This document shows, piece by piece, positions 1 through 37,932 of a DNA stretch of 64,000 nucleotides. The stretch covers positions 984 to 64,983 of the forward strand of contig JAGUZN010000220.1 of the NCBI GenBank assembly GCA_020060775.1. The letters are read 5' to 3'. Source of the stretch: Armatimonadota bacterium. Lineage in GTDB: Bacteria; Armatimonadota; Hebobacteria; CAIYQO01. The first letter of the stretch is position 1; each line of letters starts with the position of its first letter. The position numbers were made by a program, and so were the translations under genes. A model generated the notes under the pieces. It worked only from the letters and a program-made list of their open reading frames with translations, was not told the DNA's origin and ran no database searches.

Positions 1-2
1 AC

Positions 3-101
3 CAGGTAAGTCAGGTCGTAACCGAGTTCCAACGCTTCCTTGAGGGGCAACTCACAACAGATGACCCGGATGCATTGCCGGTGCTGCAGATCGAGAGGTA
101 A
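3..101 (+). CDS. 3' end of an upstream gene (partial; open frame from window start to TAA at 99-101), probably co-transcribed with the following 969-aa gene
   Basis: Open reading frame without stops from position 3 in the frame ending at TAA 99-101; the ATG of the next gene follows 5 nt later. Confidence 0.3.
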   Translation, partial: QVSQVVTEFQRFLEGQLTTDDPDALPVLQIER

Positions 102-106
102 CTCGG

Positions 107-3016
107 ATGATTCAAGCCTGGGTCTTTTCAAAACTGGAACCAGTCAAAGATGACCCGATGGTGGTCGTGCGTGACCCGTTGGGATTGACGGAAGGCATGG
201 AGAACGCATTACATGCCTGGGGTAAAACACACACCTACGCTGTGATCCCTTGTGCGACTAACCTGCTCTTCCGATATAAATATGAAGAAGCACGGGCGGA
301 TGAAACCATTAAGAAAATACTCATCCTTGATCGTACTCCTTTGAGTCGGCGCACACGTCCTGATTATCATCGAGCAGCGGCGCCGTTCTATCCAGATATA
401 TTGGCGCAAACGCGCCCCGAGGCGTGTATCGAACTGGATCTGCGGCAGTTCTTGCGTGAACAAACAAACGATGCGTATTGGCCACAGGAAGTGAATGAGC
501 CACGCCTGGCCCGCCTGCTCATGAAATATCTCGATGGAGCTCTGCGTGCCCATGAGAATCTACGGGCGGCAAGCCCTGATCGTTTCACCGACCAGGATTT
601 AAAAACGATCATCGCTTTTGCGGCTCTCGGTGTACCGGAAGCTGCTTTTAAGAATCTTTCCGCCAGTGAGTATTGGAAGATCGGTCTGCGTGGTCATCAT
701 GAATTGCGCGGGTTGGAGCAGCTCATGCCTGAGATCACCGAGACGATCACCGGCAAACTGAAGAAGGCACCAGCCCCGTTCTGTTGGCTTGCTGATAAAT
801 ATGACCCAGACACGGTGATCCGGGCTTTTTACCTTTCCGTTGTGTTGGCACAGCATGTGACGCACTGGCAAACGCTGCCGGCGAATGTTGATCCGATCTT
901 TGGGCGTATGGGCGGCATCGCCCCCGAGACCTTGCAGGATGCTGCCCCCAAGCTGGTGAGCCTTGATCCGGCACGAGCGCAAAGCGACATTCGCGCGATG
1001 GAAGATAAGTTGACCGTTAAGAATTTGCATTTTCTGCTACTCGAACAGATGCAAATTGAGGCACGGTTCGCTGAGGTGATCGAGAAAGAGCAATACTCGG
1101 AATTATTCCGTTCCCTCTCGCTCATTCTCGCCCTTGATAATCTCTGCTCAACACACCCGACCCAGGAAGCGCAAAAGCGGGTGAGTGAGGCGTTACTGGC
1201 TAAACGTTCACAACGCGCGCTGGTTGACCTTCGCCCTTCAGCGACCTGGAAAATATTACGACAGGCATATCTCCGTGCCGTACGACTTCTCGCCTTGCGT
1301 GGGCAACTTGGCAAATTCGTCAAGGAGCTTGACCAATTGCCGGAAACTACGCAGGTGCTCTATCTGGCGCCCGGTCAAGAAAAAACCGTTGCCTTTCATG
1401 TGAAGCCGGATATTTCACTAGCCACCAATAGTGAGAGAGCTTCAGGGGAGATGCCATGGGCACTTCGGGTGTGCCCGGTATGTTATGAGCGTGGCTTAAT
1501 AGAAGAAATTAGTACGCGATCTGAAAAATTCGGATCGATCCCCGTCTTGGTTAGTTACATATGCGAAAACGGTTGCCAACCACAGAGTGGCGAACGCCTA
1601 CACAACGATCCAGATGACAAAAAGAGAGAGTATTTTAAGAAATATGATGTCGGTAAATTGGCCGAGATAGAAGAAATGGAAATACCATATTGGTATCCGA
1701 GAAATCGCATGATGAATGCCCCTGAAGATCAGGAATGTTGGGGAGTAAAATGGCGCGCTGGAACTAGTAACTTTCGAACTGTCGACGAGTTGTTTACAAA
1801 ACGAAATTTGTGGGCTCTCGCTGTACTCTTCAATGCAGCTTCTCAAGAGCAGACCAGCGATGTGCTTAGGTTTAGACTGGAAGCCATTTTACTAAATTTG
1901 TCTCGTATGCAAGGTAACACTACTGATCCTCGCTTCCCCAATAACATTATTCGAGGGACTTATTATACACCTCAAATTATGCGTGAATACTCAGTTTTGC
2001 CGTGGTATGCCGGTAAGATACGAAATCTAATTGATGGTTATTCTAAATTATACCCTTCATACCAGGGCTTTGGAGAGGTTTGCATTTCTACACAATCTGC
2101 ATGTTCAATGGATGCCATTCCAGATAATTCACTTGATTACATATTCACTGATCCACCGTATGGGGACAAGGTTCAGTATGGAGAACTCAACTTTGTATGG
2201 GAATCATGGATGGGGTGGAATACACTTTGGCATGATGATGAGATCATAATTAATGACGTCCGGGGCAAGACCGAGCTTGATTGGTCTGAAATGATGGAGT
2301 GTGTAATTAAGGAGTGTTACAGAGTCTTAAAGCCTGGTAGATGGCTCACTTTATGCTATCACGACACTTCGGAGGGAACTTGGGCACTTGTCCAGGACCT
2401 GATGAAAAACGCTGGTTTTATAGTGGACGTTTCAGGCAGTACTCTATTTATCGAGACAGAGCAGAAATCGTTCAACCAGCTTACGGCTGATATCGAAGAA
2501 ATGTTCTTTATGGCGCACCGCATCTCAGCGCTAACACACCGGCATCCCAGGAGCCAGATGGCATGCGGTCTCTACTGCATAATGGCAAAAGGCTTGCTGT
2601 ATGGATTGACGCCCGGAGAGGCCTACCGGTTTATGGTCGAACAGGGGCATCGGTGCTACAACGTCACCCCGTTTCAGCAGGAGATGTCCCATTTCGCGCG
2701 CATCCTCTCTGGCGAACTAATCGGTATGCCTATTAACGAGATTGCCTCCAGCGGCTATGTCATACATACGCTGGAGGCCAGTCTGTGGTGCCTGCTCACA
2801 ACAGGCTCATTCGAGGATGCTGTATTGACGGCGGTGAACCTGGGCGACGATACCGATACGACGGGATGCGTTGCCGGCGGGCTTGCTGGCGTGAGTTACG
2901 GAGATCATGCAATTAATGCTACCTGGTTATCAGTTATTGTCCGGTCATCTGATATGCGAGCGCTGTCGCAGCACTTTCTGGCAGTGATACCGCAAGAGAT
3001 CGGTATAGGAGTGTAG
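107..3016 (+). CDS. Large multidomain protein: N-terminal domain of unknown function with a Cys-rich Zn-ribbon (CPVCY...CENGC), an N6_N4-type DNA methyltransferase-like core (DPPY motif IV, then RVLKPGR), and a C-terminal ADP-ribosylglycohydrolase-like region
   Basis: Motif 'SMDAIPDNSLDYIFTDPPYGD' followed by 'CYRVLKPGRW' matches the PF01555-style beta-class MTase layout. C-terminal 'THRHP' and 'NLGDDTDTTGCVAGGLAGVSYG' match the ARH-family signature (GGDTDT.AAIAG.L.G). A canonical FxGxG SAM motif was not found; only a degenerate 'VDVSGST'. Confidence 0.6.
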   Translation: MIQAWVFSKLEPVKDDPMVVVRDPLGLTEGMENALHAWGKTHTYAVIPCATNLLFRYKYEEARADETIKKILILDRTPLSRRTRPDYHRAAAPFYPDILAQTRPEACIELDLRQFLREQTNDAYWPQEVNEPRLARLLMKYLDGALRAHENLRAASPDRFTDQDLKTIIAFAALGVPEAAFKNLSASEYWKIGLRGHHELRGLEQLMPEITETITGKLKKAPAPFCWLADKYDPDTVIRAFYLSVVLAQHVTHWQTLPANVDPIFGRMGGIAPETLQDAAPKLVSLDPARAQSDIRAMEDKLTVKNLHFLLLEQMQIEARFAEVIEKEQYSELFRSLSLILALDNLCSTHPTQEAQKRVSEALLAKRSQRALVDLRPSATWKILRQAYLRAVRLLALRGQLGKFVKELDQLPETTQVLYLAPGQEKTVAFHVKPDISLATNSERASGEMPWALRVCPVCYERGLIEEISTRSEKFGSIPVLVSYICENGCQPQSGERLHNDPDDKKREYFKKYDVGKLAEIEEMEIPYWYPRNRMMNAPEDQECWGVKWRAGTSNFRTVDELFTKRNLWALAVLFNAASQEQTSDVLRFRLEAILLNLSRMQGNTTDPRFPNNIIRGTYYTPQIMREYSVLPWYAGKIRNLIDGYSKLYPSYQGFGEVCISTQSACSMDAIPDNSLDYIFTDPPYGDKVQYGELNFVWESWMGWNTLWHDDEIIINDVRGKTELDWSEMMECVIKECYRVLKPGRWLTLCYHDTSEGTWALVQDLMKNAGFIVDVSGSTLFIETEQKSFNQLTADIEEMFFMAHRISALTHRHPRSQMACGLYCIMAKGLLYGLTPGEAYRFMVEQGHRCYNVTPFQQEMSHFARILSGELIGMPINEIASSGYVIHTLEASLWCLLTTGSFEDAVLTAVNLGDDTDTTGCVAGGLAGVSYGDHAINATWLSVIVRSSDMRALSQHFLAVIPQEIGIGV

Positions 3017-3314
3017 GTCTGCCTCCGTTGATGTGGAACACTCATCGCTCTTATAGCGACAGCTTGCCCTTATTTATCCGTAGGGGGACGTCAATATCAA
3101 TTACTCGCGCTCGAAGACACTGCTCTGCATATGGTTGAAGATAGGCACGAATCGGTCATTTAGCTAATCCGACAGGCACTATAAACGACGTATCCATTGA
3201 TATTGCGGAGTCTCACGAAATCATTGCTGGTTTTGGACCTTAGGCGTATACTTGCTCTGTTGGGCAAGTAGCGTTTGGGTGCAAGCCATAGTAATCGGCT
3301 AATGGCGCTATTCT

Positions 3315-4388
3315 TTGAAAGGCGTGGAGCAGACCGTGGCAAAGTTGTTCATGAACGGCCTACAGCTAATTCTATCTTCCGATAGCTTCACTGCATACGA
3401 GGCAGAAATGCCCGAAGATGGTAGCTTGCGGAAACTGCGCGACCGATATGGCGACGGGTGGTTTTTCCATCGTCAAGGTAATAAGGTATATGGTTTTCCA
3501 CAAGTCGATCGTCCTACCATCCCATTTGGCACGTCCGTAGCATTAAAATGCCAAGAAAACCTTTCTATGCTAGCTGCGGTAGTCGGTGATATTATAGGAC
3601 GACGTCGATTCGGAGGCCAGGTATTATTCCGTCATCGTGGTGCGGAGTTCATCAGTAGTACAAAGGAACTCATCAGTGATGTCGCCAAACAAATGCCGGA
3701 TCTTCCCGACATAGTCAAGTTATTCAAAGCTTATCCACGTTTTACTTTAGAGGCAAAAGTCCTTGAGCTACGCGATGGCGATGGTGGGATCGGGTTATTC
3801 GTTACGTTGGGAAGCAGGTGGCGTATCGAAGCACCTCTCCACGATCTGTTGAGTAAAGGTATTGACCTTCAAGGTATGTACGTCGTTCGAAGGTATCCCG
3901 AGAAAGGCCAGCGGAGGCTTGTTGGTAGAATCTCCTGCATTGATAAAGGAACCGTCAAATTGCTAGAGTCATTCGACGGTACGGCTGAGATTGCGTGCGA
4001 CGACGTGTGGCTTGAAGGGAATAGAGAAAATTTTGCCTATTGCTTGAAGCACTTACTGAAGGCGCGTTACCTATCATTTGAGACTAAGCGTAGGGAAATA
4101 GAAGACCAGTTATTGTCGGGGCCTAAATTTCAGACAACGATACAAAGCATTGCACAGTCATTTACAAATAAGCCTCCCATGCAACTCACTCCTGATCTCC
4201 AGTGCATTGTTGGCGATATGATTTCCGTGAAAAATTTCGGCGGATACTGCACTGTGCGTGCCGCTTCTCCAGTGCAATGTTGCTATGATGCTGCACGGAC
4301 GCAACGGATGGAGTATCCCTGGAAAGGGATCGAAAATTTGGTCCGTTTAGTCGTGACACCTTTACAAGAAAATCACCGACGATACTAG
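3315..4388 (+). CDS. Hypothetical protein, candidate APAZ-like partner of the downstream short Argonaute (no recognizable catalytic motif; first gene of the operon)
   Basis: 357-aa ORF (TTG/ATG start ambiguity at 3315/3351). Stop TAG at 4386-4388 lies 2 nt before the pAgo ATG (tight coupling); an AT-rich promoter-like gap is upstream (3017-3314). The role is inferred from synteny with short-pAgo operons only. Confidence 0.4.
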   Translation: MKGVEQTVAKLFMNGLQLILSSDSFTAYEAEMPEDGSLRKLRDRYGDGWFFHRQGNKVYGFPQVDRPTIPFGTSVALKCQENLSMLAAVVGDIIGRRRFGGQVLFRHRGAEFISSTKELISDVAKQMPDLPDIVKLFKAYPRFTLEAKVLELRDGDGGIGLFVTLGSRWRIEAPLHDLLSKGIDLQGMYVVRRYPEKGQRRLVGRISCIDKGTVKLLESFDGTAEIACDDVWLEGNRENFAYCLKHLLKARYLSFETKRREIEDQLLSGPKFQTTIQSIAQSFTNKPPMQLTPDLQCIVGDMISVKNFGGYCTVRAASPVQCCYDAARTQRMEYPWKGIENLVRLVVTPLQENHRRY

Positions 4389-4390
4389 TT

Positions 4391-5605
4391 GTGTTCCCCG
4401 ATAGTGAACAAGGACCTGTTGAACGATTCCTTCGTTCGTTTCGCGACGGGATATCGTCGTCAGCCTTTGCATCTGGCTTTGTCAGGAACTTTTCTCTCGT
4501 CAACTTAAAGATTGAAAAGGTGCGAGTACCCTGGCTGGGGAAAGGGAGTCAGGCTCCTGCGCAAGCGTATAGAAAGGCGATAGATGATTACTTGGCATCC
4601 GCAGATTCGGTGCCAGATGCTGGGATCGTCATTCTCCTAGACGAACATGCCAAACTTCCCGATGCGGTAAACCCGTATCTACATGCTAAATCATCATTGC
4701 TCACGGCAGGTGTCCCGGTCCAGGAACTACGGGTGCCGACTATCAAGCAAGCTGACACATCGCTTTCCTATACCCTGCGTAACATCGCTCTCGCTCTGTA
4801 TGCAAAAATGGGGGGAACCCCATGGACAGTCGACCAGGATATGACGATCAGCGATGAACTGGTGATTGGCATGGGGAGCTGCGCACTCGCAGAGAGCCGT
4901 TTTATAGAGCGTGAAAGATATGTTGGCATCACTACCGTCTTTCGAGGAGATGGCAGCTACCTACTGGGGAACATCTCCAAAGAATGTCCGTACCGTGAAT
5001 ATCCGCAAGTTCTGGAGAGCGAAACTATATCTGTATTGAATGAAATCAAATATCGGAACGGTTGGCGTCCCGGTGATACCGTGCGGATCATATTTCACAC
5101 CTACAAACCATTAAAAAATATCGAGGTAGAAGCGATTGCTGCCAAGTGTGTGCAAGCTATCAGCGGTGAGCAGAATATCGAGTTTGCATTCCTCACGATT
5201 TCTCATGATCACCCTTTTAGACTTTTTGATATCGACCAGCAAGGTATCAAGGGTACGAAAGGCATCTATGTTCCCCAGAGGGGAATTATTATGCAGCTTG
5301 GACGATACACTAGGTTGCTTTGTACAACAGGACCAGAGTTAGTCAAACGTGAAGGATTGCCTTTGCCAGCACCTCTGCTTGTTCATCTGCATCCTGCATC
5401 AACCTACCGTTCATTAGATTACCTAGCTGAACAAGTATTGAAATTTACTGCGCTCTCGTGGCGTTCGACATTGCCTGCGCCGAAACCAGTAACAATCTTT
5501 TACTCTGACCTGATTGCGCAATTCCTGGGTCGCTTACAGCGTATTCCTGATTGGTCTCCGGCAACTCTAAACGCAAAATTACGTGCGAGTCGGTGGTTTC
5601 TATGA
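4391..5605 (+). CDS. Short prokaryotic Argonaute (MID-PIWI only), predicted catalytically inactive
   Basis: PIWI hallmark 'LYAKMGGTPW'. MID 5'-end-binding-like motif 'YLHAKSSLLTAGVPVQ...IKQ' (Y-K-Q-K spacing). RNase H catalytic positions replaced ('VIGMGS' instead of GxDV, 'IFHTYK' instead of RDG). Size of 404 aa is typical of short pAgos. Confidence 0.7.
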   Translation: MFPDSEQGPVERFLRSFRDGISSSAFASGFVRNFSLVNLKIEKVRVPWLGKGSQAPAQAYRKAIDDYLASADSVPDAGIVILLDEHAKLPDAVNPYLHAKSSLLTAGVPVQELRVPTIKQADTSLSYTLRNIALALYAKMGGTPWTVDQDMTISDELVIGMGSCALAESRFIERERYVGITTVFRGDGSYLLGNISKECPYREYPQVLESETISVLNEIKYRNGWRPGDTVRIIFHTYKPLKNIEVEAIAAKCVQAISGEQNIEFAFLTISHDHPFRLFDIDQQGIKGTKGIYVPQRGIIMQLGRYTRLLCTTGPELVKREGLPLPAPLLVHLHPASTYRSLDYLAEQVLKFTALSWRSTLPAPKPVTIFYSDLIAQFLGRLQRIPDWSPATLNAKLRASRWFL

Positions 5606-6843
5606 CGACGTATTTGTCAGGAGTATATGCTCAGCAACTTAGTACCCTAGCGACACATATCGCTGATGATGCAGTGTGGCCATCTCCGTACGCCGGGTTT
5701 CTTTACTATCTGTGTAACAAATACGATCAGCAGTTTCTGGCACCTTTGATTAACCCTTCACCGCCATGTGTTGAGCTCGGGCGGCTTTACGAGGCACCGA
5801 TTCTTGCATCAGCAGGATATTTATTCGCGCTTAACCATCCTGTAGTTCGTGCAAGTTCCGAAGCTTGGCATATTGGGTTTCAACGGCTTGCTGGGCGCGA
5901 TCCCTTCCCAATTGACCGCCAGTCATTCGTATATCGTCCAATAGAACTGCTTGGTATTACACTTGGAGTGAAGCACTGCCCTAATACTACGCAGGCAGAG
6001 ATTGATTGGCTTATAAATGTGCTACAGAGTGCTGAAAGCCGGCTGAAGAGTGCGTCCTGTTGGCAGTACCTGCTTGGTATGTATGCTTCACGACTACTGG
6101 GTAATTCCTGGGCAAAGCGTTCCTGGGATATTGGGCAATTCCCTGTGGATGACTTGAGCATCGTGGTATGGCTGTGCGCCAATACTCCTGATTTAGCGTT
6201 TGAATTCGGTGTAGACCAATTATACAAGCAAGCAGAGGAATCATTACTGACCCAGTGTGCAAAAACGGAGGTTACCATCCCAGATCCCGCACGTGCTGCA
6301 ATACTCTACTCTAGTCTTGACCGAGCTGTGAGCCGGAGTATTGAATCAGAGCACGAGCGCAATTGGCAAATAGGCCGTGATCAAGCCGATGCCCTCTCAA
6401 TCGTTATCACGTTATGCCGTAGATTTGATTTGTGTGTAAGGCAACTCCAACGTAGGCAGCGAAGTCGCAATCCTTTCACTGTACAAGATGAGTATGATGT
6501 CCAAGACCTGATGCATGCTTTGTTGAAGTTACACTTTGATGATGTTCGTCCCGAGGAGTGGACACCGTCATATGCTGGCAACGCATCACGCGTCGATTTT
6601 TTGCTTAAACGAGAGATGATCGTTGTTGAGGTAAAGATGACTCGCGATAGCCTAGCTCAACGTGAGCTAGCGGACCAATTAATTATTGATAAAGAGCGGT
6701 ATCGATCACATTCTGACTGCCGTATACTGGTGTGTTTTGTTTATGATCCGGAGCATCGCTGCACGAACCCGGCAGCATTGGAGAATGACCTCAGCGAGCA
6801 GATCGGTCTATTTAGGGTTGAAGCAATCGTCTCACCTGCGTAG
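5602..6843 (+). CDS. Protein with a C-terminal PD-(D/E)xK nuclease-like domain (restriction-endonuclease fold); candidate effector of the short pAgo operon
   Basis: ATG at 5602 overlaps the pAgo stop TGA (5603-5605), i.e. ATGA coupling. C-terminal motif 'DEYDVQD...SRVDFLLKREMIVVEVKMTRD' has D-x11-E-V-K spacing. The N-terminal ~300 aa are of unknown function. Confidence 0.5.
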   Translation: MTTYLSGVYAQQLSTLATHIADDAVWPSPYAGFLYYLCNKYDQQFLAPLINPSPPCVELGRLYEAPILASAGYLFALNHPVVRASSEAWHIGFQRLAGRDPFPIDRQSFVYRPIELLGITLGVKHCPNTTQAEIDWLINVLQSAESRLKSASCWQYLLGMYASRLLGNSWAKRSWDIGQFPVDDLSIVVWLCANTPDLAFEFGVDQLYKQAEESLLTQCAKTEVTIPDPARAAILYSSLDRAVSRSIESEHERNWQIGRDQADALSIVITLCRRFDLCVRQLQRRQRSRNPFTVQDEYDVQDLMHALLKLHFDDVRPEEWTPSYAGNASRVDFLLKREMIVVEVKMTRDSLAQRELADQLIIDKERYRSHSDCRILVCFVYDPEHRCTNPAALENDLSEQIGLFRVEAIVSPA

Positions 6844-7290
6844 GTCTGCGGAGCAATGTTATGCAAATGCAATTCGTCGTACATCCGAGAACGTATGAGA
6901 TCAACGGCTATTTCTTTCAAGTGCTGTCATGTTGCGCGTTGACTGATGGGCAGGCAGCTAATGCTGCCATGCATTTTTATCAAACACATAAGCTAAAGAA
7001 GAAAGACAAAGGAAAATTAATTAAAGTCATAACGAGCCCTGATACGGATACTGCAGGAATCTTTGGGTAGCACGGCTACCTATGACTACAGATACGCCAA
7101 CCTAAGTTATGCAACGTGATCTGAAGGAAGCATTCAGCAGTATTACCAGGTTACTCCTACATGAGCGTGAGGAGTATTCATTAGGTCGGTCCAAAGACCG
7201 TGCTGATATTTTAAGCGCAGGGTCTCCAATTCCCTCATGGCAGCCCCTGCGACCATTACCTATGTGGATGGTCCTTCACTTATTTGATAC

Positions 7291-8298
7291 TTACAGATCA
7301 AGCAATGATGCCGAATTCTCTTGAAACAACACCCCCATGCGGATATACCGCTGCACCATCACATTCGACCGATGACCGGTCTGCTGCATGATAGATCGCT
7401 CGTTTGCACCTGCACGGGCGGCGGCGGTGCAGTGGCCGGCGCGCAGGGAGTGACCGCTGTAGCGTTTCGGATCAAGGCCGATCTCTTTCACCATCTTCTT
7501 GATGAGATTGGCGACGGCACGATCCGATAAGCGCTCACTGCAGAGTTTGTCATGACGGTTGATGCCGCGGAAGAGGGCGCCGCCGGTAATCCCGCTGGAT
7601 TCCAGCCAGGATTTCAAGGCACGCACTGGACAGGTTTCTTCATGAGTGCCAAATGGTATGGCGACCCAACGCCCTTCACCTTCTTGATCTGTTTTTGATC
7701 GGCGGAGGCAGATAACGACTCCTTCCTCCCTGAAGGTCAGGTCGGCGACATCAAAGGCGACCAACTCGGAGCGCCGGAAGGCGCCAGCGTATCCCAGGAG
7801 TAGCAGTGCGCGGTCCCGCCGGCCTTTCAATGTCTCTGGTAATACCGCCATGATGCGTCTCATGTCATCGGTCATCAAGGCATCGACCTGGCGGGCGGTG
7901 ACGCCGATCCGCCGGCGAATGCCGCGCATGACGGCCCGCACGGCGGCGTGTTGGGTGGGGGAGGGGTGGCCAGCGTGTTGGTGGATGGCGCTGATGGCGG
8001 CCATATAGCGCGAGAGCGTGCTGTACTTGTGGTCGGTCGTCGCCATCGCCGTCATGTAGCAGGCAATCGTCTCAGGGCTGGCCGGCATCGACGGCAAGTG
8101 GTATTGTTCGCACCAGGCCACGAACTGCTGCCAATCCCGCTCGTAGGCCTCCCGCGTGTGTTGCGAGATACCTTCCTCGATGAACTCCTGGACTTGCTCG
8201 ATCAGTGGAACGAGAAGGGTGTGATCGGGGTGCTGGTTGGCACTGGGCCCGATCCGGGCAGGCAGTGATGCTGGCTGGGTGATGGGAGCCTGATCCAT
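7291..8298 (-). CDS. Tyrosine site-specific recombinase / phage-type integrase
   Basis: C-terminal catalytic region 'HSLRAGHCTAAARAG...TGHRS..MVQRYIR' (R..H..R..Y pattern). It sits at the GC-content transition at the right edge of the lower-GC island. Confidence 0.8.
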   Translation of the reverse strand: MDQAPITQPASLPARIGPSANQHPDHTLLVPLIEQVQEFIEEGISQHTREAYERDWQQFVAWCEQYHLPSMPASPETIACYMTAMATTDHKYSTLSRYMAAISAIHQHAGHPSPTQHAAVRAVMRGIRRRIGVTARQVDALMTDDMRRIMAVLPETLKGRRDRALLLLGYAGAFRRSELVAFDVADLTFREEGVVICLRRSKTDQEGEGRWVAIPFGTHEETCPVRALKSWLESSGITGGALFRGINRHDKLCSERLSDRAVANLIKKMVKEIGLDPKRYSGHSLRAGHCTAAARAGANERSIMQQTGHRSNVMVQRYIRMGVLFQENSASLLDL

Positions 8299-8561
8299 TA
8301 ACTGAGTCTTATCGGAAGCTAGAATAGCTTCGAGCTCAGAATAGAGTCAAGTCGCGCCAGTTCAATCCTAAATGTGTTCCCCCTCGGGCTGTCCCCAGCC
8401 GTCATCCTCTGCATTTTCTACCCGAAATGCCTCTAGGCGAGTACGTTTGGCTACACATTTTGCCCTGGAGGTGCCATGTGTTCACGACAGATCGGTTTCT
8501 AGCTTCCGTTAAGACTCAGATATGAGCTACAACGTGTCTGGTAACACCGGTAGGGGGCAGG

Positions 8562-8927
8562 GTGCGTAATACGTTACTTTTAGTTGGTGGCGGCGAATTA
8601 TCAACGCTCATCTACAAGCCTGCCCTGGAGGACGCCAATTTTCAGGTAATCCTTACGCCTGATGCACGGGTGGCAGTGCAAATGGTCATACAGTACCATG
8701 CTCAAAGTATTCTCATTGATGATTCGATTCAGCCCAGTCAAGCTGAGGAAATCATCACCAATATCCATCAACTCACCCCAACAGTTAAGAGCATTTTGCT
8801 CTGTGATGGCGATAATATCAGTGATAATGCTCTCCAGTACCTGTTTGATGGCATATATCAGAAAAGCTGGCCATTACCAGTTTTAGTCACACTGGTTCGT
8901 TTTCTTCTGTGTCAGCAGGAGTCCTAA
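8562..8927 (+). CDS. Atypical CheY-like receiver-domain protein (degenerate; lacks the canonical acidic pocket)
   Basis: 121-aa ORF with an alternating hydrophobic-strand pattern ('LLLVGGG...ILIDDS...ILLCDGD') in a lower-GC patch; weak similarity only. Confidence 0.25.
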   Translation: MRNTLLLVGGGELSTLIYKPALEDANFQVILTPDARVAVQMVIQYHAQSILIDDSIQPSQAEEIITNIHQLTPTVKSILLCDGDNISDNALQYLFDGIYQKSWPLPVLVTLVRFLLCQQES

Positions 8928-9098
8928 GCAACCCGGCGTTTGCTAGAGTGGAAGAATGGGAAGCTTGACAATCCAAGCTGAAGAGCGTATCGTTTCACCA
9001 TATTAATGCATACCTCAACTATGTCCGAGATGCATATCGCCGTCTGCATTACCTGGGAGACATAACCGTCGCATCCGGGCACGCTGCGCTTTTTTCAC

Positions 9099-33335: not shown

Positions 33336-33659
33336 CTCGGTTTGGTAAGGTTGGACCCTGTTACGTTATTGAGCTCGAATGCTTACCTGTAGACCAAGGG
33401 CACGTCCTTGCTCAACAGGCTGCTAGGCACCAGCACGGTCTGTTCAATATGCGCACGGGTAATCGTCCCCTTGGAGAAGTGACGGTATACCCATGCGCGC
33501 TTTTCATTCCCGCTCGGTCAGGTGAGTCACGGCGTCCAGCCGGCCCGGCACTATATGGGGGAGCCGAGCCTTATGGCTTATAATCGGTTGTGGACGTGGC
33601 AATGAGAATACGATCAGTACCGATACCACTATTTTGGGGGAAGGAAGGAATCCGCTGCT

Positions 33660-35342
33660 TTGCACCAAATACACTATTTGTGTGCCATCATGCCGATTAG
33701 GACTGATAATATGAGTTTGTCAACAAAAACTCCTCAAAATCCAGATCTGGCAAATCCTAGCAGTTGCCATTCCAGTTTAGGACCCCTTAGGCTGCCGCAG
33801 TCATTTTATGGCGATGCGTTCACGACGTTTCTATATGGAGCGGCGATATGCTGTATCGTTACGAAGGTCGATGCTGGTTATTCATGGTCTAATTTCGGTC
33901 TGTTGGCAATCATCTATATATTTTTTGATTGGGTTAGCAGAATTCTTTTACCATCATGTTTGCCCAATGACGACTTAGCTGTGAGAAATCGCATATACTT
34001 GAATGTGCTAAAAGCACTACTGGAAGCTGCAGGTTTATACTTGCTTACCGCTTTCCTTCTATCTGTTTTCACAACACCATTATACGGGTTATTTGCAGGA
34101 TTTTTGATCGTCAATTTATTGTGGAATTTGTTGTTGTTGTATATTATGGGTGGCCTTGGATGGAGGGACTTACAAGATGTTTGTTTTAAAGGTAATGGAA
34201 TGGATAACGAAGCTATAGCATTACATTCGTCGACCATTACGGAAATCGAAGCTCTAATAGAGAAGGCTGATATCTCTACTGACAATGCAAACACTAGTAG
34301 TCAAGTCATAAAAACGTATAATAATCACATAAAGCTTCGTAGTAGTATCAATTCAATAGGCGCAATCTACCGGATGCTCATACAATTGTTCGCATTTCAT
34401 GTTCGATATGGATATGTAGTTATTGTAATATTTGTTGCCAAGATGCTATTGGAGAGTACAACGAATACTTGGGGAAGTTTTCTGTTGAAAAAAACATATT
34501 TTTCTGTAGTGCTTGATTTCGCACAAGTCACAACAATGCACATAAGCATTTTTTGTGATAATGGCTATTTGGATGAGATATTTCTTACTGTATTAATATT
34601 AATACTTTGTGGTTTTGTTTTACGCTCTGTTAATATCAGTAATGTTTTTCAGAGTGATTGGTGGAAAAGTTACATTGCTAGTATTAAAGATAAAAACTAT
34701 GAAATGCTTGTCCCGTGGATGAAGATAATATGCAGTGTACCACTTTTCTTTGCTTGTTTGTACATATTATATATAATATGTTTTGTTGTATACACTTATT
34801 ACCCGCAGTTGTTCGCAGGTATTGATAGTGAAGGTGTAGGCATTGGCTTCCCAATCTTACTTTTTATTTATATTTTGTTGTTTTTCATACCTTTCTTATT
34901 TTTTAAATACGCACAACTTAATAAAATTATGAAAAAATCAATTGCTTCAAATGGAGATAACCATAAGAATCACGCCTCTATTTCTTGCTCATGCCCTCCT
35001 TCCAAAATCCAAGGAGAGGAGGAGAATAAAGCGATTGTCATTGAGAATTTACGATTTCAACAGGCTTGTAGAAATGGGTCATTATCACTTTATATCATTC
35101 TATTACTACTTTACTTCGCGTTGCCGATAAAAGACTTTGCAATATTTATTGCATTCCAGCAGGCCTGTGTTACGCTATTCCTATGTATCGCCGTATCTTG
35201 TCCACTTGAACAGAGAGATGAACCTATTGGCAACTTATGTCGAATGAACTCCCCGAGACCGACTTCGTGCCCTCCAAATATTAACGACGGGCTTGATGAT
35301 ACAACATCAGTGACGCCGAAAGAACAGGTAACAAGTTCATAG
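33660..35342 (+). CDS. Multi-pass integral membrane protein of unknown function (strongly AT-rich gene)
   Basis: 560-aa ORF with many hydrophobic segments; local GC content is far below the surrounding DNA. Confidence 0.5.
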   Translation: MHQIHYLCAIMPIRTDNMSLSTKTPQNPDLANPSSCHSSLGPLRLPQSFYGDAFTTFLYGAAICCIVTKVDAGYSWSNFGLLAIIYIFFDWVSRILLPSCLPNDDLAVRNRIYLNVLKALLEAAGLYLLTAFLLSVFTTPLYGLFAGFLIVNLLWNLLLLYIMGGLGWRDLQDVCFKGNGMDNEAIALHSSTITEIEALIEKADISTDNANTSSQVIKTYNNHIKLRSSINSIGAIYRMLIQLFAFHVRYGYVVIVIFVAKMLLESTTNTWGSFLLKKTYFSVVLDFAQVTTMHISIFCDNGYLDEIFLTVLILILCGFVLRSVNISNVFQSDWWKSYIASIKDKNYEMLVPWMKIICSVPLFFACLYILYIICFVVYTYYPQLFAGIDSEGVGIGFPILLFIYILLFFIPFLFFKYAQLNKIMKKSIASNGDNHKNHASISCSCPPSKIQGEEENKAIVIENLRFQQACRNGSLSLYIILLLLYFALPIKDFAIFIAFQQACVTLFLCIAVSCPLEQRDEPIGNLCRMNSPRPTSCPPNINDGLDDTTSVTPKEQVTSS

Positions 35343-35384
35343 TTAATGGTATATAAGTGATCATCAGATTGGAGTGACCAAGCG

Positions 35385-36842
35385 ATGTCTATGATTGATC
35401 TAGTCATAATAGGAGTTTATTTGATGGCGTTGTTCTGCTGGGCTATTTATATTGGCCTGCGAGAAAACGCCCAAGATTTTTTGGTTTTCTCGCGGCGTGC
35501 TCCTTTTGTGCTGGTATTGTTTTCTATTGTAGCTACCTGGGTTGGCGTTGGCACGACCGTAGTGACAGCGGCATCGGCATACGAATCCGGTATCTCACTA
35601 GGATTGATCGCCTGCCTTGGGGGCGTGTTGGGGTCTATCGGTGCCGCAATCTTTGCCCCTCGTCTGAAAGCGTTTGGAGACCGTTTCAACGCGCATACCA
35701 TCGGAGACTTCTTCCTGATCCGGTATTCAAACGGTGGACGCTTGATGGCTGGTGCACTGATAACAATCGTCTATTCACTGCTGACCGCCGCGCAACTCGT
35801 AGGGCTTGCAACGCTCTTGAAGGTTTGGACTGGGCTTCCTGTGGAGGTCGTCATCATTTTTGCTGCGTTTTCCACCGTAGCCTATACGGCGTTCGCTGGG
35901 ATCAAAAGCGATTTTTATACCGACATCATACATTTTATAGTTATGGCAATTGTTCTCTTTGTTATCCTATTGCCATTGACACTGGATAAAATTGGCGGAT
36001 TACATGGATTGCTGCGATTACCTCATACTTATTTCGATCCCTTCTCCTACGGAGGGCCAGCTCTATTCATCGCTGGAATGATCTTTGGCGCAGGCAGTGT
36101 TTTCGTGACCATGGAGCTTTGGCAACGCGTCTACGCATCAACAACCGGACGTGCCGCACGTATCTCGCTTGCAGTTGCCATCCTTCTTATCGTTCTCTTT
36201 TACGCGGTATCCACTGTGTTGGGTATGTCAGCAAAGCTACTATTACCGAATCTGCCGAATCGTGATTTTGCCTTGTTTGCGATGATGAAAGAGTATTTAC
36301 CTACAGGTATGCTGGGGCTAGGGATGTCAGGATTCATGGCGATTATTCTGTCTACCTTAAACTCAACACTGATGGTAACCTCTGCGACCTTCACCAAGGA
36401 TTTCTGGTGTGGAGCTCTTAATAAATCCGCTGATGACCAAAAGGCATTGTTATCTGTGGGCCGAATTTCTACATTTGTGAGCGGAGCTATTGGTCTGGGG
36501 ATTGCCTTGATACTACCTGATCTGGTTGCCTTAAGTGTCAATGGCATGTTCATGTTGCTGATCATCCTTCCAGCCATCGCTGGGGGATTCTTCTGGCGAC
36601 GTGCTACTGCCACGGCTGCAACGCTTTCCGTCTTCGCAGGAGCGCTTGTGACAGTGATTTTCTTGAAAATCGATGCTGGTATCGCGTTTGTGCCTGGTTT
36701 TCTCACAAGCCTTCTAGTTTTCGTTATTGGCTCTCTTGTCACTGAGCACTCTATAGAAGAAAATATTGGAGTTGTTTCTATGTGGCGAGGGAAAGCGGAA
36801 ATCCCGTCGATGCATGAAGGAGATGTTCATGACTTACGTTAA
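35385..36842 (+). CDS. Sodium:solute symporter family (SSS) transporter
   Basis: N-terminus 'LVIIGVYLMALFCWAIYIGL...DFLVFSRRAPFVLV...ATWVGVGTTV' typical of SSS/PutP-like permeases; ~13 TM segments. Confidence 0.65.
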   Translation: MSMIDLVIIGVYLMALFCWAIYIGLRENAQDFLVFSRRAPFVLVLFSIVATWVGVGTTVVTAASAYESGISLGLIACLGGVLGSIGAAIFAPRLKAFGDRFNAHTIGDFFLIRYSNGGRLMAGALITIVYSLLTAAQLVGLATLLKVWTGLPVEVVIIFAAFSTVAYTAFAGIKSDFYTDIIHFIVMAIVLFVILLPLTLDKIGGLHGLLRLPHTYFDPFSYGGPALFIAGMIFGAGSVFVTMELWQRVYASTTGRAARISLAVAILLIVLFYAVSTVLGMSAKLLLPNLPNRDFALFAMMKEYLPTGMLGLGMSGFMAIILSTLNSTLMVTSATFTKDFWCGALNKSADDQKALLSVGRISTFVSGAIGLGIALILPDLVALSVNGMFMLLIILPAIAGGFFWRRATATAATLSVFAGALVTVIFLKIDAGIAFVPGFLTSLLVFVIGSLVTEHSIEENIGVVSMWRGKAEIPSMHEGDVHDLR

Positions 36843-37932
36843 TACTGTGGAGCAAGTAAGCGATAAGCTGATGGCTGCTACCGATTCTGCGAATTGTTCT
36901 GCGATGTCAGCCTTACTCCACCAGGTGTGCCAATCGCTTCAAGAGTCTGACGCATCATTCTTGCGTCATTGGTATAATAGTCGGCTTACACGCGCCTGCG
37001 AAAACCCTATGCTTGGCGAAAAAGCCGTTACCATCTTCGCAGATTTGCTAGGAATTACCGTCGAGACGGCACAATGCGTTGAGAAGCCATGGATGCTTCT
37101 ATACATCCATGCACTCTTATTAGATGACATGATTGATTATATCCCTAGAGAAGAATCAAAAAAAGTTCAATCATTATGCAGCGCTTTCGATAGGGAACAC
37201 AATAAAGTATGTGAGCTGCTATTGAATGAAAATTTTGTGGTGTATTCACATCACCATCAGCGCTTCAATGCTGAAGCATGGGCAGCTATAACTTACGAGA
37301 TTGAATGGTCAAAAGGAACTAGATTCACATCACATAATGAAGCGCCACGTCAGCAAGGCCTCAAAGCCGCTCTCGCAAAGTCGTGTGCTACCATGCTTAT
37401 GCTTGCTGAACGTGGTATACCTCTTTCATCAGAACAGGAAGAGGGCATTATTACATTATGCGAAGGTATTCAACTTCTAGACGATTTTGCTGATATGACA
37501 GAAGATTATATGCAAGGACGTATGAATAGGTTGTTGAATACAACATATCGATGGATAAGGAGAAATCTGCCATGCATAGATATAGCTTATCTGGGCAAAT
37601 ACCAGCTACTCGTCTCTGCGATTCTTTCTTCTGCGATTACCTGCACATGGATTGATGCGGCAAATCGATATGAGCAGACATTGCAGATATTTAAACCCTC
37701 TAGTGAGTGCTGGACTGCTCAATATTTTTTGCAACAATCAGTGGAATGTCGACTATGCAGCACTGCATTAACTGATTTACTCACGCAAAATCGTTGCCTG
37801 TTGGATCAACTCATCACAGCTCTGAGTGTGAACGAAGAAGAATTAGCGTGTAAGTTAACAACCGGATGCCTAGCCGGTTTATGGCAAGATATTCGCTATA
37901 TTATTGGGACAGGACCAAAAGCAAGTAATTGA
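36829..37932 (+). CDS. Isoprenoid synthase fold protein (polyprenyl synthetase / class I terpene synthase-like) with two Asp-rich motifs
   Basis: 'HALLLDDMIDY' (DDxxD) and ~125 aa later 'GIQLLDDFADMTED' (second DDxxD preceded by a G..Q-like context). Start placed at ATG 36829, overlapping the symporter stop. Confidence 0.4.
   Translation: MTYVNTVEQVSDKLMAATDSANCSAMSALLHQVCQSLQESDASFLRHWYNSRLTRACENPMLGEKAVTIFADLLGITVETAQCVEKPWMLLYIHALLLDDMIDYIPREESKKVQSLCSAFDREHNKVCELLLNENFVVYSHHHQRFNAEAWAAITYEIEWSKGTRFTSHNEAPRQQGLKAALAKSCATMLMLAERGIPLSSEQEEGIITLCEGIQLLDDFADMTEDYMQGRMNRLLNTTYRWIRRNLPCIDIAYLGKYQLLVSAILSSAITCTWIDAANRYEQTLQIFKPSSECWTAQYFLQQSVECRLCSTALTDLLTQNRCLLDQLITALSVNEEELACKLTTGCLAGLWQDIRYIIGTGPKASN

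Follow-up and report, generated by a model that had tools for sequence, protein, structure and literature searches.

Long-B prokaryotic Argonautes (pAgos) that are encoded together with a separate PD-(D/E)xK nuclease have already been published as BPAN systems (PMC10620215, PMC13535254). Song et al. (2023), who named the nuclease bAgaN, reported that target DNA recognized by means of a guide RNA triggers collateral DNA degradation and abortive infection (PMC10620215), and Liu et al. (2026) documented the anti-phage activity of BPAN, the autoinhibited dimers of bAgaN, and an 8:8 assembly of pAgo and nuclease, where bAgaN contacts the target-bound pAgo through its N-terminal domains (PMC13535254). 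Systems that combine a split N-lobe, a MID-PIWI protein, and a separate PDEXK effector have also been published, as the fAfAgo-like systems (PMC10954474). The locus described here is located at positions 3315–6843 of a 64,000-nucleotide stretch of DNA from an Armatimonadota bacterium (assembly GCA_020060775.1, contig JAGUZN010000220.1, positions 984 to 64,983 of the forward strand; hereafter, the window). It was originally predicted to be a three-gene short-pAgo operon consisting of an APAZ-only adaptor, an inactive MID-PIWI protein, and a free nuclease. The present analysis indicates that it is very probably a horizontally acquired two-gene BPAN operon, comprising an inactive long-B pAgo and bAgaN, in which a single missing base splits the pAgo gene, and that this break is very recent or artefactual rather than part of an evolved three-gene architecture.

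One Argonaute gene in two open reading frames

The locus comprises three open reading frames (ORFs) on the forward strand, whose positions and lengths were read as predicted: ORF A (3315–4388; 357 amino acids, TTG start, TAG stop at 4386–4388), ORF B (4391–5605; 404 amino acids, GTG start, TGA stop at 5603–5605), and ORF C (5602–6843; 413 amino acids counted from the ATG at 5602–5604). Their presumed translational coupling applies only to the second and third ORF, where the stop codon of the pAgo gene and the start codon of the effector gene share an ATGA (5602–5605) that is preceded by a GGTGG within the codons for the C-terminal RWFL of the pAgo. ORFs A and B do not overlap; the TAG of ORF A is followed two bases on by GTG 4391, and no Shine-Dalgarno motif precedes this GTG.

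ORFs A and B are collinear halves of one RsAgo-type long-B Argonaute of approximately 756–763 amino acids. In the PADLOC model of class II (long-B) pAgos (pAgo_II, PDLC02379; 724 positions), ORF A covers positions 2–314 (6e-45) and ORF B positions 334–724 (2e-156), and the class II model is the best PADLOC match of ORF B. The NCBIfam model of Rhodobacter-type Argonautes (NF052569; 759 positions) is covered in the same manner, with ORF A at positions 3–328 and the frame of ORF B at positions 332–759 (2e-174); the two halves, scored separately, reach 192 and 581.9 bits, and their rough sum of about 774 bits compares with a curated equivalog cut-off of 700. ORF A aligns with residues 23–348 of RsAgo (2.7e-42) and with residues 28–227 of EcAgo, and the ORF B part aligns with residues 351–778 of RsAgo (2.8e-149). 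The expectation that the product of ORF B would match Argonaute profiles was also borne out by its match to the Pfam family Piwi (4e-17), and the predicted KMGGTPW hallmark is present as AKMGGTPW.

The 5' part of the pAgo gene (3315–4337) encodes the regions N, L1, PAZ*, and L2 (residues 1–341 of the fused protein), as assigned with PADLOC, NCBIfam, and the alignments with RsAgo and EcAgo. It retains a reduced PAZ* region (approximately 3834–4025) that can be aligned with both proteins, and a Pfam search of ORF A returned neither a match nor an effector domain. The 3' part (4340–5605) encodes the MID domain (approximately 4317–4852) and an inactive PIWI domain (approximately 4850–5602), as assigned with PADLOC, NCBIfam, RsAgo, and Foldseek. 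The 357-amino-acid protein, taken for a possible APAZ-only adaptor in the original prediction, represents one half (N-L1-PAZ*-L2) of the same pAgo, cut off by a single-base break of the reading frame. The true start codon of the gene is probably not TTG 3315 but GTG 3336, because a GGAG is located upstream of the latter (3326–3329) and because the N-termini of the homologs start only 4–8 residues ahead of the LNGF motif.

When ORF A is joined at ...KGIEN to the frame of ORF B by adding one base in GAAAATTT (4332–4339), the repaired protein of 763 amino acids contains N, L1, PAZ*, L2, MID, and PIWI in collinear order. Its residues 11–763 align with residues 23–778 of RsAgo (PDB 5awh; E = 3.6e-201), and it also aligns with the EcAgo of EcBPAN (PDB 23wq; E = 7e-83), in both cases with an ungapped junction. 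Of the 120 homologs listed by a search of 5.8 billion proteins, 113 are single proteins of 730–800 amino acids, and the best homolog has 53% identity; 40 homologs were used in the alignment. In the related genomic loci, the pAgo is encoded in one uninterrupted frame except in a fragmentary contig of a metagenome-assembled genome (MAG; locus L022), and a scan of genome contigs yielded full-length relatives of at most 54% identity and a fragment of 152 residues with 64% identity (locus L021).

The same affiliation emerges from the structure. An AlphaFold (AF2) model that covers the MID-PIWI half (pLDDT 76, pTM 0.70) retrieved the chains of RsAgo as the best Foldseek matches (E approximately 1e-46, best 4e-47; TM 0.85; 51–52% identity), followed at a distance by the Argonautes of SPARTA, SPARDA, and SPARSA (approximately 1e-18 to 1e-19; 15–20% identity). 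By profiles, alignment, and structure match, the Argonaute belongs to the long-B lineage of RsAgo.

The original prediction had described the middle gene as encoding MID and PIWI only, which does not hold, since its frame extends further upstream than the start codon suggests. The frame of ORF B is open for 34 codons before GTG 4391, reading ...FGPFSRDTFTRKSPTILV, and the last 17 of these codons (4340–4390), which encode GPFSRDTFTRKSPTILV, are highly conserved. The mean identity to the 40 homologs is 70% for these hidden codons, whereas the parts encoded by ORF A and ORF B reach 38% and 61%, respectively. In the same columns, the out-of-frame tail of ORF A (LVRLVVTPLQENHRRY; 16 residues, 4338–4388 including the TAG) has a mean identity of only 3.8% and does not belong to the native protein. 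In the AF2 model, strand beta1 of the MID domain consists of the residues TILVVFP (query residues 14–20; pLDDT about 93), and GTG 4391 corresponds to residue 18. Because the start codon falls inside a core strand and is not preceded by a Shine-Dalgarno motif, ORF B as called does not begin with a natural short-pAgo N-terminus.

An inactive pAgo and its associated nuclease

The residues of the guide pocket and the catalytic tetrad were mapped by pairwise alignment onto the published assignments for EcAgo (PMC13535254). The Y-K-Q-K pocket of the MID domain, which had been recognized in the original prediction, is intact: Y455, K459, Q470, and K498 align with Y426, K430, Q441, and K469 of EcAgo and are invariant in all 40 homologs. 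The tetrad of the PIWI domain maps to G521, R561, Y597, and D732 (EcAgo G492, E532, Q568, and D700). The claim that every catalytic position is substituted is correct for the first three; the fourth aspartate, D732, is retained, as is D700 in EcAgo. The first position is a glycine in each of the 40 homologs. At the glutamate-finger position (window 4995–4997), which is R561 here, E569 in RsAgo, and E532 in EcAgo, the homologs have mostly aspartate (23), followed by alanine (6) and glutamate (5).

ORF C (5602–6843) is predicted from its sequence to encode a bAgaN-type, long-B-pAgo-associated nuclease of 413 amino acids, with a helical N-terminal domain (approximately residues 1–265) and a PD-(D/E)xK domain (residues 268–412), an assignment based on PADLOC, Pfam, and synteny. 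The PADLOC model of class II pAgo-associated effectors (Aga_Helical-REase, PDLC02411) matches residues 10–411 (1.4e-74), and the Pfam family PF18742 (DpnII-MboI) matches residues 268–412 (1.9e-51). The C-terminal restriction-endonuclease fold is thus as predicted; the motif, however, is not D-x11-EVK but D332-x10-E343-V-K345, which aligns with identical spacing with the catalytic D298 and E309-V310-K311 of EcbAgaN. When ORF C and seven orthologs were combined into a profile and compared with the PDB, EcbAgaN was the sole match (4.6e-7), with the D-EVK motif aligned, and D332, E343, and K345 are invariant in this alignment of eight orthologs.

The co-occurrence of the third gene with pAgos is evident, and these pAgos are RsAgo-like. 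A homolog of ORF C, or at least of its helical domain, directly follows the pAgo gene in all RsAgo-like loci with downstream DNA (14 of 14), and seven of these loci encode the full nuclease version. The junction between pAgo and effector reads ...TGGTTYCT(A/G)TGA, with an ATGA or GTGA overlap, in each of the 13 related loci examined.

In several cyanobacterial loci (L004, on a plasmid of Rivularia sp., as well as L001, L003, and L008 from Nostoc or Nostocales), a gene also overlaps the stop codon of the pAgo gene. The similarity of these genes to ORF C is limited to its helical N-terminal domain (residues 1–313), and their C-terminus differs. In the Rivularia plasmid (L004, 7328–9091), a protease domain of the CHAT caspase-like type forms the C-terminus (Pfam, 7.8e-11), and a literature search for the pairing of pAgo with 'CHAT domain' found no paper that describes it. 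The corresponding gene of L001 has only the first 40 or so positions of the restriction endonuclease domain left.

By analogy with EcBPAN, the pAgo would be a catalytically dead, guide-binding sensor and bAgaN a free-standing effector that is translationally coupled to it. Such a mechanism is suggested by the synteny, by the two domains of the effector, and by a pAgo whose pocket is conserved and whose active site is dead. Via its intact Y-K-Q-K pocket, the pAgo would load 5'-phosphorylated small RNAs and base-pair with invader DNA that it cannot cut; the target-bound pAgo would then recruit an autoinhibited bAgaN dimer through the N-terminal domain of bAgaN, and the assembled complex would degrade DNA indiscriminately, causing abortive infection. 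The types of guide and target, the activation of the nuclease, and the abortive outcome are postulated by homology with EcBPAN and RsAgo. The functional logic of the original prediction, an inactive guide-directed sensor combined with a free nuclease effector, is thereby maintained; its assignment to the short pAgos and its claim of novelty are not.

The frame break and its genomic surroundings

The reading frame changes by -1 between positions 4337 and 4340, and ORF A then runs into the TAG at 4386–4388. Compared with the ancestral reading E-K/N-F-G, the A4/T3 tract of this site (4332–4340; GAAAATTTG) is one base short. Where the relatives read GAG AAA TAC GGT CCG TTC AGT, the sequence here is GAA AA·TTT GGT CCG TTT AGT, and homolog DNA at this site also reads CGG TTT GGC; the comparison shows that one base is missing from the A4T3 tract. 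In EcAgo, the break would fall approximately at residues 314–315, just inside the boundary between L2 and MID (MID starts at residue 308).

Two causes are conceivable for the missing base: a real mutation that inactivated the gene within a decaying defense island, or a homopolymer error of the assembly. Frame breaks were encountered in 2 of 23 related loci, both on MAG contigs, one in bAgaN (L013, 1277–2216) and one in the pAgo (L022, 102–1143), which suggests that single frame disruptions in these operons are not rare in assemblies. Exact-protein look-ups of ORF C, the recombinase downstream of the operon (see below), and a neighboring host gene returned no record. Metagenome contigs contained no exact DNA match spanning the break, with zero or one extra base allowed, and a blastn search of the operon against plasmids likewise gave no match. 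Among five suspicious same-strand pairs of overlapping ORFs in the window, Pfam detected none that is split across one family; since most of them lack any match, this is weak evidence. The genomic context slightly favors a real lesion over an assembly error, because the operon has a foreign composition and is located between the remnant of a chimeric gene and a tyrosine recombinase.

Several points weigh against the interpretation as a freshly broken BPAN operon. The position of the break nearly coincides with the dividing point of natural split long-B pAgos; the stop codon and the GTG that follows it could permit re-initiation and some residual function; and the break sits on a formal X_XXY_YYZ heptamer. 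The searches yielded no near-identical copy with which the break could be compared. Moreover, the presumed preferences for guide and target are borrowed from proteins with only 30–50% identity.

The alternative that fares best, albeit improbable, is a nascent but functional split of the long-B pAgo, in which the N-L1-PAZ*-L2 subunit and a MID-PIWI protein re-initiated at GTG 4391 would reassemble in the manner of AfAgo-N and AfAgo and still control bAgaN. Split long-B pAgos exist, have several independent origins, and work like the fused versions (PMC10954474). The break at the boundary between L2 and MID is near the start of AfAgo, whose residues 100–427 align with residues 430–763 of the fused protein; stop and GTG are only 2 nucleotides apart, and there are no further lesions in either half of the pAgo or in bAgaN. 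However, none of the 113 full-length homologs and none of 15 RsAgo-like loci are divided at this boundary, and the GTG lacks a Shine-Dalgarno motif. Its product would be devoid of 17 of the most conserved residues and of four of the seven residues of MID strand beta1, and ORF A would bear a nonsense tail of 16 residues. The hidden codons, finally, which a split gene would leave untranslated, are undrifted, so that the gene has not passed through any phase of evolution in split form. If the split were functional, the locus would represent a long-B pAgo at the first step toward a split, short-pAgo-like system, and a naturally occurring intermediate in the repeated emergence that has been proposed for split and short pAgos.

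Still less probable is a programmed -1 ribosomal frameshift at A_AAT_TTG (4334–4340), which would yield the full-length pAgo (...KGIENLGPFS...) at a set ratio and limit the dosage of a toxic sensor of abortive infection. The heptamer has the form X_XXY_YYZ in the frame of ORF A, the required shift is -1, the shifted product would equal the homologs in length at the junction, and the hidden codons are perfectly preserved, as expected if they were translated. A/T homopolymer tracts, however, are common sites of indels and sequencing errors. No relative changes frame at this site, and the 100 nucleotides downstream of the heptamer fold no better than shuffled sequences (z = -0.66). Furthermore, A_AA.U_UU.G is not among the heptamers that are efficient in Escherichia coli, which are of the type H_HH.U_UU.Y only, and the tetramer U_UUG reaches only 1.8–3.6 times the background even with a pseudoknot (PMC4066793).

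The notion of a new short-pAgo architecture, with an APAZ adaptor that lacks an effector and a nuclease that is encoded separately, follows the ORF structure of the raw sequence and the absence of a Pfam match or catalytic motif in ORF A; it is hardly credible and was rejected on the grounds of collinearity and the hidden codons. ORFs A and B each cover one half of a single RsAgo-type model, the MID-PIWI part is 51–52% identical to RsAgo but only 15–20% to short pAgos, ORF A retains an alignable PAZ*, and the frame of ORF B is conserved upstream of its 'start'.

The BPAN operon differs in composition from its surroundings. Its GC content at third codon positions (GC3) is 0.45–0.47, compared with 0.63–0.78 for the majority of ORFs elsewhere in the window. 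A gene encoding a tyrosine recombinase (7291–8298) is located 450 nucleotides downstream on the opposite strand, and the region from approximately 1500 to 7000 together with the recombinase is consistent with a horizontally acquired island. A search for direct repeats bounding the island (positions 1–9000) returned only two short pairs at chance level, and the entire 64-kb window contains no tRNA, tmRNA, or Rfam family above the gathering score that would mark an integration site. The upstream ORF of 969 amino acids, the recombinase, and the ORF at 8562 have no counterpart in the related loci, which indicates that they are not conserved partners of the system.

The upstream ORF (107–3016, forward strand) looks like an in-frame chimera, with a GC content that rises from 0.43 to 0.55 at a junction around nucleotide 2489. 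Its residues 511–794 match only the middle of models of PglX and type II methyltransferases (PADLOC PDLC02541, positions 338–607 of 919), and residues 795–958 match only the C-terminal half of an ADP-ribosylglycohydrolase (Pfam, positions 139–285 of 287; NCBIfam, Tri1-like), a pattern that points to the scar of a deletion or insertion, or to a join made during assembly.

In the 300-nucleotide gap upstream of the operon, a consensus scan detected a sigma-70-like promoter candidate of low confidence (3197–3224, forward strand; 9 of 12 matches), and the number of such sites around it does not exceed the expectation from shuffled sequences. The same type of scan found a terminator-like hairpin with a run of T, also of low confidence, 110 nucleotides past the stop codon of bAgaN (6953–6978, forward strand). 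A second patch of low GC3 (0.35–0.48; 33606–37932, forward strand) comprises three large ORFs, one of which encodes a protein of the sodium:solute symporter family (35361–36842, forward strand); the other two lack a Pfam match.

With the nearest relative at 53% identity, the locus adds a divergent BPAN operon, located in a mosaic and probably decaying island. Its practical value lies in a correction: frame-broken long pAgos can mimic short pAgos with "effector-less APAZ" partners, and such cases are quickly exposed when collinearity with a full-length pAgo model is checked and the codons that precede the presumed start are found to be conserved. A genuine break would provide an example of a defense system that was switched off by a homopolymer indel. 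Only if the fragments still function, which is unlikely, would the locus inform the origin of split pAgos.

Comparison with known systems

The closest counterpart of the locus is EcBPAN of E. coli (EcAgo and EcbAgaN; PDB 23wq), in which a long-B pAgo is likewise followed immediately by an effector of two domains, the C-terminal one being of the PD-(D/E)xK type and carrying the motif D-x10-EVK. The two agree in the order of the genes, the intact Y-K-Q-K pocket, the substitution of the first and third tetrad positions, and the retention of the fourth aspartate. By contrast, the similarity of the pAgos is only moderate (E = 7e-83), that of the bAgaNs is confined, as far as detectable, to the nuclease domain (profile search, 4.6e-7), an arginine (R561) occupies the glutamate-finger position that is E532 in EcAgo, and the pAgo gene is frame-broken.

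RsAgo of Rhodobacter sphaeroides (PDB 5awh, 6d8p) is the closest solved structure; it shares the reduced PAZ* and the equivalog model NF052569, and also has a predicted nuclease gene downstream (PMC10620215). Unlike the pAgo of this locus, it is one uninterrupted protein of 777 amino acids and keeps the finger glutamate E569.

In fAfAgo (AfAgo-N, AfAgo, and a downstream effector; Manakova et al. 2024, PMC10954474), an N-lobe ORF, a MID-PIWI ORF, and an effector follow each other as in the locus described here. The fAfAgo-like systems divide near the same inter-lobe boundary, and PDEXK effectors with the shared helical N-terminal domain are listed among them (PMC10954474). However, the split in the present locus is a fresh 1-nucleotide break with an undrifted junction, no ribosome-binding site, and a start codon that falls within a core strand; the searches yielded no relatives with a split gene, and ORF A keeps the PAZ* that is absent from AfAgo-N.

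SPARDA, which comprises a short pAgo and DREN-APAZ, also combines an inactive pAgo sensor with a DNase of the PD-(D/E)xK fold and with collateral DNA degradation, which in the case of the present locus is presumed by analogy. The nuclease of SPARDA, however, is fused to APAZ and encoded upstream, whereas bAgaN is a separate protein encoded downstream. Moreover, SPARDA contains a true short pAgo, with 18–20% identity in the structural match, whereas the pAgo of this locus is a long-B Argonaute.

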